From Gemmatimonadales bacterium (GTDB lineage: Bacteria > Gemmatimonadota > Gemmatimonadetes > Gemmatimonadales > GWC2-71-9), in the NCBI GenBank assembly GCA_037189525.1, contig JBBCJC010000002.1, forward strand, positions 1,152,001 through 1,216,000: 64,000 bases of DNA, given 5' to 3'. Of this stretch, positions 43,741 through 48,653 are shown in pieces; positions within the stretch are counted from its first letter, which is position 1, and every line of letters begins with the position of its first letter. Under the pieces are notes generated by a model. The model was not told the DNA's origin, searched no databases, and saw nothing but the letters and a program-made list of their open reading frames with translations. The translations under genes and the position numbers were made by a program.

Positions 43741-44289
43741 ATGGCCACCTCATCCGATCCTGTCCCGAACCCCGCGTTCGGTCCGATTGCCGCCGGGGCC
43801 GACATCGGCCACGTCCATCTCAAAGTTGCCGATCTGGACCGGGCACTCGGCTTCTATGTCGAGGTGCTCGGCTTCGAGCTGACCCAGCGCTACGGCAGCC
43901 AGGCAGCCTTCGTTTCCGCGGGCGGTTACCATCATCATATCGGTCTCAATACCTGGGAAAGCCGAGGCGGGTCGCCGCCGGCTGCGGGTACGACCGGGTT
44001 GTTTCATGTCGCGATTCGGTACCCGACGCGCGCGGCGCTGGCCGATGCGCTGCGGCGTCTCGTCGCGGCGCACATCCCGCTTGACGGCGCGAGTGATCAC
44101 GGCGTGAGTGAGGCGCTCTACCTCAGGGATCCCGATCAGAACGGGATCGAGTTGTACTGGGACCGGCCGCGGGAGGCATGGCCGCGCGGTCCGGACGGGG
44201 CGTTAGGCATGGTGACGCTGCCGCTCGACCTGGGCGACCTCCTGGCGGAACCAGCGCCGGCCGTTCCCGACGCGTCAAGGAAAGGGTAA
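43741..44289 (+). CDS. VOC/glyoxalase family protein (CatE-like)
   Basis: IGHVHLKVADL, GGYHHHIGLNTW, DHGVSEALYLRDPDQNGIELY. Confidence 0.92.
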   Translation: MATSSDPVPNPAFGPIAAGADIGHVHLKVADLDRALGFYVEVLGFELTQRYGSQAAFVSAGGYHHHIGLNTWESRGGSPPAAGTTGLFHVAIRYPTRAALADALRRLVAAHIPLDGASDHGVSEALYLRDPDQNGIELYWDRPREAWPRGPDGALGMVTLPLDLGDLLAEPAPAVPDASRKG

Positions 44290-44296
44290 TCACCCC

Positions 44297-44749
44297 ATGG
44301 TGCTGCTCGGGATCGTGTTTGCGCTGTTGCTCGGCATCGGTCTCTCGATACAGACCGGGGTCAACACGTCGCTCCGGACCGCGCTGGGCAGTCCGCTCCA
44401 TGCGACGGTGGTCAACTTCCTGGTGGGTACGGCGCTGGTCCTCGTGGTGGCCGGGGTCGCGGTGCTGACCGGCACCAGGGCGCCGGCGCTTGCCACGCTG
44501 GGCCGGACGCCCGGCTGGATGTTTGCCGGCGGCATCATCGGCGCGGTGTACGTGCTCGGCATGATCGTGCTCGCGCCCAAACTGGGTGCGGCCACGCTGA
44601 TGGCGCTGGTAATCACCGGCCAGCTGCTGGCCGCGCTGGTGCTCGATCACTACGGCTGGCTCGGCTTCTCGGTGCAGACGATCACGCCGACGCGGATCAT
44701 GGGCGCCGTTCTGCTGGTGCTGGGCGTGATCCTGGTCCGGCGAGGCTGA
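44297..44749 (+). CDS. DMT family transporter (YdcZ/DUF606-like)
   Basis: QTGVNTSL, WMFAGGIIGA, PKLGAA, GQLLAALVLDHYGW. Confidence 0.9.
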   Translation: MVLLGIVFALLLGIGLSIQTGVNTSLRTALGSPLHATVVNFLVGTALVLVVAGVAVLTGTRAPALATLGRTPGWMFAGGIIGAVYVLGMIVLAPKLGAATLMALVITGQLLAALVLDHYGWLGFSVQTITPTRIMGAVLLVLGVILVRRG

Positions 44750-44757
44750 CGAAAGCA

Positions 44758-44794
44758 CAATCGCCACGGATGCGTTCTCCGTGGCGATTGGTTT
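44758..44794. terminator. Bidirectional terminator between the DMT gene and rtcB
   Basis: CAATCGCCACGGA-N7-TCCGTGGCGATTG 13-bp perfect stem. Confidence 0.8.
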
Positions 44795-44816
44795 GTGTTG
44801 ACTGATCCTGTGAGGG

Positions 44817-46034
44817 TCAGTCCTTGTAGGGGTCGAACTCGTCCGCGCCGGCCATCACGACGATCAACGGCCGGAGTGTATGCAGCACCTCGATGGTCTC
44901 ACCCTGCGCAGCGAGCACTTCGGGCAGGCGCCGGTAGGCGTGCGGGCTCTCGTCCAGCCCACCCCCTCGCAGGATCACCCCTTTCTCGCGCACCCAGCCG
45001 TGCATCATCGACGGCGTTACCAGTCCGGGGCGGAGCACCTTGCCGCTCCGATTGCGCTTCCCGGCCGCCTGGGTCCGTGACATCACGCGACCGGCACCAT
45101 GGACGGTCGAGAAGAGCGCCGCGGCCTGCACCGCCTGCACCTGCTCGTCGTCGGTGGTCCGTCCGCGCACGATCACGGCGTCGTCGCCCATCGAGCCGCC
45201 GATGAAGCCGGTCTGGTCCGGAAACGCCGGGGTTGCGCCCTTCCGGATCACCACCAGCGACCGGCCGCCATGCTCCTCGCGCCAGGCGAAGTTGTGGTGG
45301 TTGTGGACCAACTCCACTTCCTGCCCACCGAGCAAGGACATCACCTTGCGCGCCACCCATTCCCGTCCGGCATAGGCGTACCGGCCTGCCAGGGTCATCA
45401 GGGTCCAGTAGTCGTGGCCGATCGGGCTCGACAGGTCGAGCAGGACCTCCCGTTCGGGAACGCGTGCGCCCCAGGCCTCGTTCTGCCCCAGCGCCAGGAA
45501 CCCCGACGCCACGGTATGACCGAAGCCTCGGCTGCCGAAGTGGACTCCGACCCAGAGGACACCGCTTTCATCGGCAAAGACGTCGACGTAGTGGTTCCCG
45601 CTGCCCACCGTGCCGAGCTGGCGACGGGCCTTGGCGCGCAGAGCGTCACGATGGGCGGCGGGGACGGCCTCCCATCCTTCGTCCTCGAAGAGCGGATGGT
45701 CGACCGGCGCATCGTCCGCCTGGTTTTTGCGGCCGACTCCGAAGCTCACCGCATTCGCGATGGCGTCGGCCAGCGCAGCAAGCGCTGCCGGCCGGCGCGC
45801 CGGGTCCGGTTCGAAATCCTCGAGACGGCGATCGGTCCGGATTGCGGCGTTGCCGCAGGCGATGTCGAACCCGACGCCGACCACGGACACCTGGTCGTCG
45901 TAGGCCGCGACCCCGCCGATCGGCATCACGTAGCCGACGTGCCCGTCGGCCATCAGCGCCACGCGCTCCGCGCGGGAGGCGACATCCGCGATCTGCGCCA
46001 GCGTCTTGTCGTCGTGCGCACCGAAAATCTGCAT
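44817..46034 (-). CDS. rtcB: RNA 2',3'-cyclic phosphate/5'-OH ligase
   Basis: MADGHVGY..PIGG, DIACG, GSGNHY, HFGSRG, HNHHNF, RKGATPA, HGAGRVMSR, DESPHAY; GGAGG SD 7 nt before ATG 46034. Confidence 0.96.
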   Translation of the reverse strand: MQIFGAHDDKTLAQIADVASRAERVALMADGHVGYVMPIGGVAAYDDQVSVVGVGFDIACGNAAIRTDRRLEDFEPDPARRPAALAALADAIANAVSFGVGRKNQADDAPVDHPLFEDEGWEAVPAAHRDALRAKARRQLGTVGSGNHYVDVFADESGVLWVGVHFGSRGFGHTVASGFLALGQNEAWGARVPEREVLLDLSSPIGHDYWTLMTLAGRYAYAGREWVARKVMSLLGGQEVELVHNHHNFAWREEHGGRSLVVIRKGATPAFPDQTGFIGGSMGDDAVIVRGRTTDDEQVQAVQAAALFSTVHGAGRVMSRTQAAGKRNRSGKVLRPGLVTPSMMHGWVREKGVILRGGGLDESPHAYRRLPEVLAAQGETIEVLHTLRPLIVVMAGADEFDPYKD

Positions 46035-46036
46035 CG

Positions 46037-46201
46037 TCAGACCTCCGCCAATGCGGTGGCGGCGGGGGAGGTGGGCTCCCCCGCGGTCCGGTTGTCGCCA
46101 TCGCCGGATTCCCGTACCGGTGCCGGTGCGGAATTCCCAACCGTCGGGGCCGGGCTCGGGATCAGCCGGCGGGACGGGAGATAGATGGTTGGCTTCAACA
46201 T
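46037..46201 (-). CDS. Possible 54-aa ORF coupled to rtcB
   Basis: MLKPTIYLPSRRLIPSPAP...ATALAEV; stop 2 nt before the rtcB ATG; low complexity, weak SD. Confidence 0.3.
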   Translation of the reverse strand: MLKPTIYLPSRRLIPSPAPTVGNSAPAPVRESGDGDNRTAGEPTSPAATALAEV

Positions 46202-46274
46202 GATGCACTCACTTCCTGGTTCATTCGGGCGTCGGTGCGCAGCAGGCGCTTCGTGCTTCCGACGTTTCGGTCGA

Positions 46275-46607
46275 TCAGAGATCGAGCCGCTCGTCGCCGT
46301 CGCCGTCGTCGCCCCGCGCCCGTTGTTCATCTCGCAAACGCTTCCAGCGGGCGTGGCTGTCGGCGCGTTGTGCTTCCGTGCTCTGGCTGATCGACCAGAT
46401 GGCCCGTGCTCGGACCCGGATCCGGGCGCCCGAGAGATCGACGAAGGTGATCCAGTCGACCGGCGGGGTGGCATCGAGCTGCGCCTCGATGTGCCGCGCC
46501 ATGGCCGTGCTCACCAACCAGCTCGGTCCCCGGGTTTCCACTTCGAAGTGGTCCAGGTCGGACGATTCGGATACTTCGTGGTCGATCTTCTCGTTGGACT
46601 CGCTCAT
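46275..46607 (-). CDS. Hypothetical 110-aa protein, first gene of the rtcB operon
   Basis: AGGAGG SD 7 nt upstream of the ATG; good codon usage; charged C-terminal helix. Confidence 0.8.
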   Translation of the reverse strand: MSESNEKIDHEVSESSDLDHFEVETRGPSWLVSTAMARHIEAQLDATPPVDWITFVDLSGARIRVRARAIWSISQSTEAQRADSHARWKRLRDEQRARGDDGDGDERLDL

Positions 46608-46624
46608 CGAGTCTCCTCCTCCGC

Positions 46625-46666
46625 AAAAACGAAACGCCCCACCTCGATCGGGATGCGAGGTGGGGC
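46625..46666 (-). terminator. Leader (attenuator) intrinsic terminator
   Basis: Minus strand GCCCCACCTCG-N9-CGAGGTGGGGC-GTTTCGTTTTT, ending 4 nt before the SD of the downstream gene. Confidence 0.85.
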
Positions 46667-46694
46667 ATCGAACACAGCGTCGCGTATCGCAATG

Positions 46695-46790
46695 CTAACT
46701 GTGACGAAGCCTCCACCGGGATTCCAAACGCGCCAAGCTGCCCGATGTCCGGGTCTGGCGAGCGCCTGGGTTGAAGTCGTATCTCGGCAT
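46695..46790 (-). CDS. Putative attenuator leader peptide (31 aa; in-frame alternative starts GTG 46805 and ATG 46847)
   Basis: MPRYDFNPGARQTRTSGSLARLESRWRLRHS; lies between promoter and terminator, with its last codons forming the antiterminator strand. Confidence 0.55.
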   Translation of the reverse strand: MPRYDFNPGARQTRTSGSLARLESRWRLRHS

Positions 46791-46863
46791 GGTGATCTGC
46801 GTCACAAAAGTCAGTCCCGTCGATCCGCGCGCCCGACCGTCGGGCATGTGTTACGGGAGGCAC

Positions 46864-46892
46864 ACGATACGAACGGACTCCGGTTTTGTCAA
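46864..46892 (-). promoter_or_regulatory. Sigma70 promoter for the rtcB leader
   Basis: Minus strand TTGACA-17 nt-TATCGT. Confidence 0.8.
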
Positions 46893-47026
46893 CGGGCGCC
46901 ACCGGGGCATCTGGCCGCCTTCTTGCCGGTGGAAGGGTGCGCTGCAGGTGCGCGCCGGACGGGGTGGGCCTTTATCTTCCGGCGGGGGGAATGGCGGGTC
47001 ATCGAAACAGTCAGAGGGGAGAGTCC

Positions 47027-47629
47027 ATGGGGGCGAGCAAGAACCGATCGGTGCGGGCCAGTCTCGCGGTCGTGATCGGACTGGTCATGGCGGCGCCGGC
47101 CGCCGCGCAGAACAAGGGAATCGAGCTGAATGGATTTGCCGGGCTTTATGCGCCGATGGACGAAAACGGCCTCGAAGGCACCCGTGAAGCGGTGCGGCGT
47201 GGCTCGCTCGCCTTTGGCGGACGTCTCGGCTACTGGTCCGGCGGTCTCCTCGGTGTCGAGGCCGTCGGCGCCTTCTCCCAGGCGCGGATGCGGGTGACCC
47301 TCAATTCCGGGTCGCAGTTTGCGCGGGGGACGTATTTCGGCGCGGGTGGCGGCAAGCTCATGCTCAATCTGACGCCGAAGAGCACGCTCCTGGGTCTGGC
47401 CATCGGGGGTGGCCCGGCGTTGGTGATGTTCGGCAAGTCGGTGAGGGATTCCGACGAAAAGGACTCGTTCATGGGCGGTGTGGCTGGCGCGACGCTGCGT
47501 CTCAATGTCGGCCAGAATGTGGCGCTCCGCGGCGACGTGGAGGATTTCCTGTACAGCGCCGATTTCGGGCTGGGCAAGAAGCTGCGCCATGATCTCCTGC
47601 TGAGCGGCGGTATTTCGATTCAGTTCTAG
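47027..47629 (+). CDS. Outer-membrane beta-barrel protein (8-strand type)
   Basis: Signal peptide AAA|Q, amphipathic strands, C-terminal GISIQF. Confidence 0.8.
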   Translation: MGASKNRSVRASLAVVIGLVMAAPAAAQNKGIELNGFAGLYAPMDENGLEGTREAVRRGSLAFGGRLGYWSGGLLGVEAVGAFSQARMRVTLNSGSQFARGTYFGAGGGKLMLNLTPKSTLLGLAIGGGPALVMFGKSVRDSDEKDSFMGGVAGATLRLNVGQNVALRGDVEDFLYSADFGLGKKLRHDLLLSGGISIQF

Positions 47630-47638
47630 GCTGGTACG

Positions 47639-47666
47639 GGGCGGGTTCCTTGTGAGCCCGCCCTTT
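47639..47666 (+). terminator. Intrinsic terminator
   Basis: GGGCGGGTTC-CTTGT-GAGCCCGCCC-TTT. Confidence 0.7.
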
Positions 47667-47786
47667 CATTGTGTCTGATCATCATATTGGTCTCGGTTTA
47701 GGGTGGGGGATATTGCCCTCCCGCCTGGTGTCAGAGGCTGTCGCGCCGTAGTTGTGTGCTTCGAAGTCAATCCGTAGCTTGAACGG

Positions 47787-48653
47787 ATGCGACGGATCAC
47801 GCTTTTTCTCTCCGCGGCGGTCCTGGCGGCATGTGGGCCGGCACCGGACGCAGCACCCCCCGTCGTCGAGACGCCCGCCTACCGGATTCCGACCGACGCC
47901 GAGATTCCCGATGGTCCGGTCGGCGTATCGATCCGGCGGGGCCGAGCCCTCCTGGCGGCGACCCGTGACAGCCTGCCCGACAACGTCGGGAACCGTCTCA
48001 ACTGCACCAGTTGTCATCTCGAGAACGGGACGCTGGCCCACGCGGCGCCGTGGATCGGGATCTACAGCCGGTTTCCCCAGTATCGATCCCGGAATGCCAA
48101 GGTCAACCTGATCGAAGACCGGATCAACGACTGTTTCGAACGCAGCATGGTGGGTAAGGGGCTGGCGCGTGACAGTCGGGATATGACCGACATCATCGCC
48201 TACATGGCCTTTCTGTCGCGCGGGGTGGCTCCGCCTGGCGACGTGCCGGGGCAAGGCTTCCGGCAACTGGAGCCGCTGGCGCCGGATACCGTTCGGGGCC
48301 GGTTGCTGTATGTCCAGCAGTGCGTCCGCTGTCACGGGGCCAACGGTGAGGGCATGACCAATCCGCATCCCGACAGCTTCCCGGCGTACTATCCGCCGGT
48401 CTGGGGAGACGAGTCCTATTCGATCGGCGCGGGCATGGCGCGGCTTCGGACTGCCGCCGCGTTCATTCGGGCCAACATGCCGTTCGATGCCAAGGGAACG
48501 CTGACCGATCAGCAGGCATTCGACATCGCCGGGTACATCGTATCCCGGTCGCGGCCGGATTTCGCCCGAAAGGCCGAGGACTGGCCCAAAGGAGACCCGC
48601 CGCCGGATGTGGCATATTCGACCAAGGCCGGCAGGGCGCCGACCGGTCGTTGA
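47787..48653 (+). CDS. tsdA: Diheme c-type cytochrome lipoprotein, thiosulfate dehydrogenase-like
   Basis: Lipobox LAAC; CTSCH and CVRCH; EDRINDCFERSM catalytic-Cys motif; PPVWG.ESYSIGAGMARL..AAAFI.ANMP. Confidence 0.8.
   Translation: MRRITLFLSAAVLAACGPAPDAAPPVVETPAYRIPTDAEIPDGPVGVSIRRGRALLAATRDSLPDNVGNRLNCTSCHLENGTLAHAAPWIGIYSRFPQYRSRNAKVNLIEDRINDCFERSMVGKGLARDSRDMTDIIAYMAFLSRGVAPPGDVPGQGFRQLEPLAPDTVRGRLLYVQQCVRCHGANGEGMTNPHPDSFPAYYPPVWGDESYSIGAGMARLRTAAAFIRANMPFDAKGTLTDQQAFDIAGYIVSRSRPDFARKAEDWPKGDPPPDVAYSTKAGRAPTGR

Follow-up and report, generated by a model that had tools for sequence, protein, structure and literature searches.

Organization of the leader and the operon

We analyzed a 64,000-nt stretch of a contig from a Gemmatimonadales soil bacterium (JBBCJC010000002.1; hereafter the window), in which a structured leader precedes a short operon ending with rtcB, encoding an RNA 3'-phosphate ligase. 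An earlier note had proposed that this leader acts as a ribosome-sensing attenuator. All of the leader and operon features are on the minus strand and were read directly from the sequence. The sigma-70-type promoter TTGACA-17-TATCGT (46892-46864) has 10 of 12 consensus matches and is the sole sigma-70-like site in 44000-48000, where shuffled sequences gave an expectation of 0.2; transcription would start near 46857, about 7 nt past the -10 box. The upstream open reading frame (uORF, 46695-46790), 31 codons followed by TAG (MPRYDFNPGARQTRTSGSLARLESRWRLRHS), has its ATG at 46790 and its TAG at 46697-46695, and GTG 46805 and ATG 46847 are alternative in-frame starts. Behind it lies an intrinsic terminator (46624-46666, -22.1 kcal/mol) with an 11-bp GC-rich stem and a 9-nt loop, GCCCCACCUCG-CAUCCCGAU-CGAGGUGGGGC (46666-46636), followed by the tail GUUUCGUUUUUG, with eight U within the next 12 nt.

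Three further segments complete the leader. Segment 1, the anti-antiterminator strand (46800-46814), pairs with 46706-46695 in the minimum free energy (MFE) fold; segment 2, the antiterminator 5' strand (46699-46717), is made of the last six uORF codons, and segment 3 (46659-46677) consists of the spacer and the terminator 5' arm. The leader 5' end carries the hairpin GCCCG-ACGG-UCGGGC (46831-46845), which is present in the MFE folds and retained, with an altered loop, in the related leaders L005 and L014.

The Shine-Dalgarno (SD) sequence GGAGGAGGAG (46613-46622) belongs to the first structural gene, which encodes a 110-aa protein (46275-46607, ATG at 46607). A conserved 54-codon open reading frame (ORF; MLKPTIYLPS..., 46037-46201) follows, overlooked by the earlier note, which saw only the 110-aa ORF and rtcB. 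It has the conserved N-terminus ML[KR]PT[IV]Y[LI]PS and a Pro/Ala-rich tail, gave no family match in Pfam or NCBIfam, and occupies the same place between the small-protein gene and rtcB in L005, L007, L008, and L012. The SD sequence of rtcB sits inside its last codons. The rtcB gene (44817-46034; Pfam RtcB, PF01139, E = 7e-64) is full-length, covering Pfam positions 2-424 of 426, and in an alignment with the solved Pyrococcus RtcB its product keeps the DGHxGY, DIxCG, GSGNH, GSRGxGH, HN, and HGAGR motifs, which we take to be the metal-binding and His-GMP motifs. The NCBIfam release_rtcB model gave 65 bits for this protein, with a cut-off of 272. Otherwise, the promoter, uORF, terminator, SD sequence, ORFs, and segments 1-3 all lie where the earlier note had placed them.

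A 13-bp hairpin with T-rich flanks (44758-44790) is located between the convergent rtcB and YdcZ-type DMT exporter (DMT_YdcZ by Pfam, 44297-44749, plus strand) genes. It is likely a bidirectional terminator, and it marks the end of the operon.

Alternative folding of the leader

The full leader has an MFE of -109.9 kcal/mol (z = -3.3; 0 of 200 shuffles equally stable), and this fold contains helix 1:2 and helix 3:4, the terminator. Transcripts of growing length were then folded from the inferred start at 46857. Helix 1:2 (46814-46800 with 46706-46695, extended) is the MFE structure for transcript ends 46700-46660, helix 2:3 (46717-46699 with 46677-46659) for transcript ends 46650-46640, and at transcript end 46630 helix 1:2 is back together with the terminator. 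The three mutually exclusive helices described in the earlier note were thus reproduced, so that its structural proposal holds for this sequence. In the window, 11 of 18 terminator-arm nucleotides pair with segment 2, as compared with 1.3 in shuffles.

A ribosome footprint modelled on the truncated window RNA lowers the pairing probability of the terminator 5' arm from 0.7-0.9 to 0.4 once it reaches at least codon 22, a weak effect in that the footprint-dependent drop was seen in only some leaders. The leader has no Rfam match in an E-value scan of 44000-48000, and no Y-RNA family was found on it; a scan of 15 related loci at the Rfam gathering threshold returned tRNA hits only.

Close relatives of the leader

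A 31-codon open frame is unremarkable in DNA of 65% GC (by our estimate the chance of one is about 0.45), and the significance of the uORF comes from the comparison with relatives. Two of 60 related genomes contain the 301-nt leader, with identities of 88% and 82%. In the leaders L005 and L014 the uORF ATG, the length of 31 codons, and the TAG are kept while 8-15 codons differ, and all 3 of the close leaders keep ATG 46790. The conservation of the uORF, whose absence the earlier note had listed as refuting its idea, extends to its start, length, and stop, but not to the peptide sequence.

In L006/L014, from a same-genus relative, rtcB has been deleted except for its last approximately 20 codons, and the leader, the 110-aa gene, and the 54-codon ORF are kept. 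The anatomy expected for an attenuator of an rtcB operon is present, as had been claimed, but the cassette goes with the small-protein family and with the start of the operon, and not with rtcB itself.

A further motif recurs in related leaders. The sequence TGTGA-N6-TCAC (46791-46805, minus strand) overlaps segment 1 and resembles a CRP-type operator. Its half-sites are invariant and its 6-nt spacer variable in 7 of 7 leaders of four subfamilies, and a one-strand scan of the genome found six perfect TGTGA-N6-TCACA sites, where we estimate that about 1-2 are expected from composition. Lying about 50 nt after the -10 box, it could be a CRP/FNR-type operator at which a regulator blocks or activates transcription, the RNA helices being secondary. 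We regard such DNA-level control as very improbable, though it could coexist with attenuation: the motif is absent from most other leader subfamilies that retain the layout of uORF and hairpin, it is also part of the RNA structure, as a 4-bp hairpin and as half of helix 1:2, and no regulator was identified for it.

Leader design across Gemmatimonadota

For a wider comparison, up to 750 nt upstream of the small-protein gene were scanned in 126 loci for hairpins with five outer GCCCC/GGGGC pairs; these pairs were fixed by the search pattern and are hence uninformative on covariation. A strong hairpin of this type was found in 73 of the 126 loci, giving 56 distinct leaders, and many of the hairpin-less loci either offer next to no sequence upstream of the gene or are of the tRNA-array and Ro60 layouts described below. 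Clustering at 88% identity left 37 leaders, including one added from in front of a tRNA array.

The layout of the leader is well conserved. In all 37, an in-frame stop (25 TGA, 9 TAG, 3 TAA) closes a long frame 24-44 nt before the hairpin; 33 stops that end frames of 25 codons or more lie at -36 to -25, and 0-6 were counted per 6-nt bin from -120 to -37. A promoter of the form TTGAnn-17-TAnnnT precedes the hairpin by 151-322 nt in 30 of 36 leaders. An in-frame ATG or GTG with a strict SD sequence 4-11 nt upstream is present in 20 of 37, whereas only 28 of 218 other ATG/GTG triplets of these leaders (13%) have one. The uORFs mostly have 28-62 codons. In the largest (L010-type) subfamily the uORF is 123, 120, or 114 nt long, a multiple of three, in 22 of 23 leaders; the one exception has a +1 insertion, and its frame extends to a second in-frame TGA. 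The SD sequence of the first gene lies 2-80 nt behind the hairpin.

The antiterminator pairing was evaluated in the MFE fold of the nascent RNA cut just before the terminator 3' arm, counting 5'-arm nucleotides paired with the uORF end (the last 12 codons and the stop). At least eight of them pair with it in 25 of 35 leaders (14 of 14 L010-type, 11 of 21 others), and the mean is 9.5 nt as compared with 1.8 in dinucleotide shuffles. As a control, 91 other GCCCC..GGGGC hairpins of the window's genome gave a mean of 1.9 nt, with 12 of 91 reaching eight, and among the control hairpins with T-rich tails 0 of 15 did so. Segment 2 is located 1-34 nt before the uORF stop across the family, and before segment 3 emerges 215 of 315 segment-2 nucleotides are paired upstream, with a partner whose position varies.

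Covariation, a check suggested in the earlier note, gave a divided answer. The inner terminator pairs covary among the 37 leaders (A-U in 19 and G-C in 15 at one position, C-G in 20 and U-A in 11 at another), but RNAalifold on 23 L010-type and 7 window-type leaders found few covarying pairs and misaligned the terminator. Even divergent leaders show an unusually constant hairpin base with its flanks (UC-GCCCC...GGGGC-GAU), and the recurrent C-terminal TG residues of the uORF peptides are explained by the nucleotides that pair with CCCCGU.

Several subfamilies carry additional elements. In L020/L026-type leaders, a 6-codon mini-ORF (ATG-N15-TAG/TAA, for example MFLGLR*) precedes the main uORF by about 25 nt; its stop is shared in part with the main uORF's SD sequence, GAG[AG]UAG, and its ATG is conserved in 21 of 23. 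In L016/L018, L027, and L032, a small hairpin whose stem pairs covary (CCGC-UGAG-GCGG, CCGC-UAAC-GCGG) holds the uORF stop in its tetraloop. A conserved T-arm-like GCGACTCCCGG element is found 90-200 nt downstream of the leader hairpin (L019 372-382, L136 446-456, L035-L042), within a conserved stretch of about 150 nt before a tRNA array or before the small ORF MLDIRLL..., and may be a tRNA mimic; the window lacks it. L019 also has tandem GACGTGAT-type repeats (241-330) between the leader hairpin and the tRNA array. A T-box or tRNA-sensing reading of the leader, prompted by the T-arm-like GCGACUCCCGG in relatives, was set aside; the element is absent from the window.

The small-protein family and its RNA-repair neighbourhoods

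The 110-aa protein, an orphan according to the earlier note, is a member of a conserved unnamed Gemmatimonadota family with many relatives, although it has no Pfam or NCBIfam match. Relatives were found in 10 of 61 related genomes, at 37 loci of a species-level genome collection, all of them titled Gemmatimonadota, Gemmatimonadales, or Longimicrobium, and on 107 metagenome stretches, of which 80 were kept. Within the phylum, the protein is present in 37 of 401 sampled genomes and 21 of 147 genera. The invariant or near-invariant residues include W30, F55-V-D-L58, G60, R62, R64, Q75, Q80, and R81.

An AlphaFold (AF2) model built with 50 sequences (pLDDT 79.7) has a five-stranded small barrel and a long C-terminal helix. 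The structural matches are weak: Foldseek against the PDB listed Rv3208A and DUF903 at E = 0.01-0.2 (best E = 0.012), and VIA-align reached Z = 5.3 at best (Rv3208A, SPO1 capsid protein), with Hfq, Lsm, and WYL rows at Z 2.7-3.9. The Foldseek PDB, VIA-align wide, and ESM Atlas searches gave generic small-barrel or own-cluster matches only, and RNA binding by the modelled protein is for that reason a guess.

The neighbours of the small-protein gene point to RNA repair. Pfam annotation of 25 neighbouring proteins, with Rfam and ARAGORN used for the tRNAs, placed Hen1 (Hen1_L plus methyltransferase) and a Pnkp-like kinase/phosphatase directly behind the gene in L058, L084, and L123, RlaP beside it in L065, an HNH endonuclease in L021 and L023, Ro60 (TROVE plus vWA_Ro60) in L021, L023, L041, L044, and L095, and a Dps-like ferritin in L019. 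Among the 37 genome loci, rtcB is downstream on the same strand in 19, a remnant in 1, upstream in 6, and not found within 3 kb in 11. In the layout of rtcB, tRNA, HNH, small protein, and Ro60, 10-13 tRNA genes are directly upstream of rtcB. Given the Hen1/Pnkp, RlaP, HNH, Ro60, and tRNA-array neighbours, the small protein marks RNA-repair neighbourhoods.

The uORF-hairpin leader itself is found upstream of tRNA arrays in L015, L019, and L136; the same leader type precedes Hen1/Pnkp and RlaP operons, and it persists where rtcB is deleted. A recurrent gene order in these neighbourhoods is tRNA array, rtcB, tRNA-Arg, HNH, small-protein gene, 119-nt tRNA-like element, and Ro60 (positions 1-1500 of L135, L136, and L137; L019, L021, L023). 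The tRNA-like hits of 119-136 nt adjoin Ro60 and may be YrlA-type Y RNAs.

The small protein is the obvious candidate for a different kind of attenuation, in which an RNA-binding protein reads the leader and stabilises either the terminator or the antiterminator, for autoregulation or to sense damaged RNA, and the open frame is a by-product of structurally constrained GC-rich RNA. This would agree with a uORF peptide that is not conserved and has no coding-type substitution pattern, with the constancy of the hairpin base and flanks, with the window's uORF having no SD sequence, and with the small-protein gene directly following the hairpin in most loci; the protein also has an alternating-Arg strand (G-A-R-x-R-x-R) within a small barrel that is weakly like Hfq/Sm/WYL domains (Z 3-5). 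On the other hand, it would leave unexplained the three kinds of stop codon at a fixed distance, the SD sequence with ATG in 20 of 37 leaders, and the insertions and deletions in threes; over 2 kb separates the hairpin from the small-protein gene in the tRNA-array layouts, and no function can be named on such weak fold matches. We hold factor-mediated attenuation to be unlikely, and it would be compatible with translation-coupled attenuation as a second layer.

Genome context and RNA data

The genome of the window (4.65 Mb, 98.1% complete) has a single RtcB. The earlier note had remarked that no rtcR, rtcA, prfH, or Ro60 gene is present in the window, and the genome-wide searches extend this: RtcR (PF06956), RtcA (PF01137), and TROVE/Ro60 had no match in the 98.1%-complete genome, with control genomes matched, and no PrfH was found above the cut-off genome-wide. 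The two sub-cut-off matches to the PrfH model are presumably ordinary release factors. A Hen1_L search of the genome gave no match, but the controls gave no match either.

Among public RNA runs, just four metatranscriptomes contain parts of the stretch, with small shares and as contigs, in which true ends are not resolvable and DNA carry-over is possible, so that these data can only hint at transcription. A 209-nt contig covers 46829-46625 with no differences and ends where the U-tract ends, another contig (46762-46599) extends past the terminator to the opening codons of the 110-aa gene, and a third joins 44848 to 45947 and represents the rtcB-deleted form. Most of rtcB and of the 110-aa gene is without contig cover, which is uninformative either way.

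The first of these contigs would be expected if the promoter-to-terminator unit were an independent transcript, a small RNA of about 235 nt or the mRNA of a small protein, with the operon expressed through constitutive leak or an unrecognised promoter and no switch involved. Contigs cannot prove ends. The high degree of structure in the leader and its strong terminator, which forms in every condition of the equilibrium model, also speak for this reading. We nevertheless judge this explanation quite improbable. The antiterminator pairing is conserved and specific to these hairpins, the peptide is not conserved, the leader always heads RNA-repair operons with the first SD sequence shortly behind the hairpin, and no Rfam family matches it. 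No second promoter-like site was found between the terminator and rtcB in the scan of 44000-48000; such a promoter had been named in the earlier note as grounds for rejecting the idea.

A proposed model of translation-coupled attenuation

We propose as the probable explanation that a translation-coupled leader-peptide transcription attenuator heads a three-gene RNA-repair operon encoding the small beta-barrel protein, the 54-aa protein, and RtcB. The parts, the three alternative helices, and the conserved layout come from computation, and from them we infer that ribosomes translate the uORF, that transcripts end at the hairpin, and that stalled ribosomes or damaged RNA provide the inducing signal. 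As the leader of about 235 nt emerges, segment 1 would pair with segment 2, the last six uORF codons. If no ribosome opened helix 1:2, segment 3 would stay free, the terminator would form, and transcription would stop before the first gene. A ribosome reaching the TAG, about 30 nt before the hairpin, would cover segment 2, and the terminator would form as well. A ribosome lagging or stalled in the first two thirds of the uORF would melt helix 1:2 and leave segment 2 exposed, which could then capture segment 3 once it is made, and the polymerase would read through into the operon. The switch would thus report slow or stalled translation, caused for example by damaged tRNA or rRNA or by ribosome inhibitors, without the need for RtcR.

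Several results weigh against this model. Its translational part is the most exposed: the conserved ATG 46790 of the window's uORF has no SD sequence, a strict SD sequence is missing in 17 of 37 leaders, and no codon-level selection on the uORF was detectable in the window's group or in the largest subfamily. In the window's group, 8 of 8, 11 of 15, and 10 of 14 codon differences are non-synonymous; in the largest subfamily, the uORF entropy by codon position is 0.70/0.64/0.65, with no third-position excess, and the synonymous share is 0.24 in the uORF frame as compared with 0.20 and 0.19 in the two others. Constraint on the RNA could therefore account for much of the uORF conservation. Inspection of the 37 leader peptides showed no shared run of a regulatory codon; they are merely Arg-rich, as expected in GC-rich DNA.

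On the RNA side, helix 2:3 is missing from the MFE fold in 10 of 35 leaders, and among the nearest other subfamilies it is missing in L007 (5 nt), L009 (0), and L012 (0). The U-tracts of many relatives are weak. The truncated window RNA still pairs its 5' arm with no ribosome present (0.81), and at equilibrium the terminator has a probability of about 0.9 at every masked ribosome footprint, in the window and in most leaders. Since the terminator wins at equilibrium whatever the footprint, the switch has to depend on kinetics, like that of the trp leader, and the equilibrium ribosome-masking scan was set aside as uninformative for this reason. Unrestricted RNAduplex pairing of the arm with the 117 nt upstream gave a mean z of only -0.84, with 3 of 37 below -2; such duplexes barely beat shuffles because GC-rich RNA offers many partners, and the position-specific test was used instead. 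The leaders were also gathered with a pattern that fixes the five outer pairs and are mutually related, so that the counts are not independent and overstate the support.

As the peptides have no regulatory codon run, the switch would respond to the progress of ribosomes in general, and translation itself, not the peptide, would matter. Such a signal suits operons that repair tRNA and rRNA and provide tRNAs in reserve.

A broader and more speculative possibility, which we consider rather unlikely as a whole, is that a portable cassette for sensing translation damage, made up of the small protein and the uORF-hairpin leader, gates a back-up translation kit of spare tRNA arrays, RtcB, Hen1/Pnkp, RlaP, and Ro60 with Y-like RNA. 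Damage to tRNA or ribosomes would be read directly by the ribosome translating the uORF, and the small protein, as an undescribed RNA-binding fold, would add a second input through damaged RNA or the hairpin base. If true, control of tRNA gene arrays by an attenuator would be known for the first time, and the cassette would represent a general logic by which bacteria regulate RNA repair independently of RtcR. The modularity across several RNA-repair systems and tRNA arrays adds to the value of the model, which also offers the first functional context for a conserved family of about 100 aa nameless in Pfam and NCBIfam, and the idea is testable in cultivable Gemmatimonas strains.

Comparison with known systems

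Little has been described on how bacteria without RtcR time the production of RNA-repair enzymes, and our literature search found no paper on such a leader in Gemmatimonadota. In E. coli and Salmonella, rtcBA is under the control of RtcR and sigma-54 at the initiation step, where tRNA fragments are sensed by an enhancer-binding protein with a CARF domain. Induction of RtcB upon damage to the translation apparatus is described in PMC7790460 and PMC10159003. In the genome studied here, RtcR and RtcA were not found, and the promoter is of the sigma-70 type. The rsr-yrlBA-rtcBA arrangement (Ro60, Y RNAs, RtcB) is echoed by the small-protein relatives beside Ro60 and the 119-136-nt tRNA-like hits, but the window's genome has no TROVE gene by our search, and no Y-RNA family matched the leader.

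In the cyanobacterium Anabaena, the tRNA L-array (trn operon), the HNH gene all8564, rtcB, dpsA, and hen1-pnkP are silent until translation is impaired, and this regulon is controlled through 9-nt direct repeats over the -10 box and the start site, as described in PMC8421152. The Gemmatimonadota loci similarly combine a tRNA array, HNH, RtcB, a Dps-like ferritin, and Hen1/Pnkp; however, the array is preceded here by the uORF-hairpin leader (L015, L019, L136), which is a different switch.

The leader resembles the trp/his/leu/pheA attenuators of enterobacteria, as summarised with the Yanofsky model in PMC4007540, in having four segments with 1:2, 2:3, and 3:4 alternatives, a leader-peptide stop within segment 2 or shortly ahead of it, and an intrinsic terminator preceding the first gene. 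It differs from the trp/his class in having no codon run for one regulatory amino acid, a longer leader peptide, and RNA-repair targets.

Antibiotic-resistance attenuators have very short uORFs and are drug-specific via the nascent peptide. In Term-seq work by Dar et al. in 2016 and in the erm literature, a ribosome stalled on the uORF reportedly frees an antiterminator and allows read-through (vmlR, lmo0919, and the erm/cat leaders). In contrast to these, the peptide here is not conserved, and the targets are RNA-repair genes.

The nearest described system is PA5471.1/armZ-PA5470 of Pseudomonas aeruginosa, to our knowledge the one case described so far in which ribosome sensing controls an RtcB-like gene. 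PA5471.1 is a very short leader peptide, whereas the uORFs here have 28-62 codons (31 in the window), and ArmZ acts as an anti-repressor of a Pseudomonas efflux pump, whereas the RtcB here keeps the ligase motifs and is not known as an anti-repressor. The precedent, which had been brought up in the earlier note, is in print: PMC12057347 terms ArmZ RtcB-like and PA5471.1 a leader peptide, with the short uORF and terminators before the RtcB-like gene and expression that rises, with no RtcR, when ribosomes are impaired or stalled. The resemblance is functional only, and the phylum is a different one. The first gene here encodes the small beta-barrel protein rather than RtcB, there is no prfH-like partner above the cut-off in this genome, and the leader type also heads Hen1/Pnkp, RlaP, and tRNA-array operons. 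The same logic would thus be found in another phylum, before a catalytically intact RtcB and with relatives adding Hen1/Pnkp, RlaP, and long tRNA arrays, which suggests that RNA repair and spare tRNAs are recurrently switched on by asking the ribosome.

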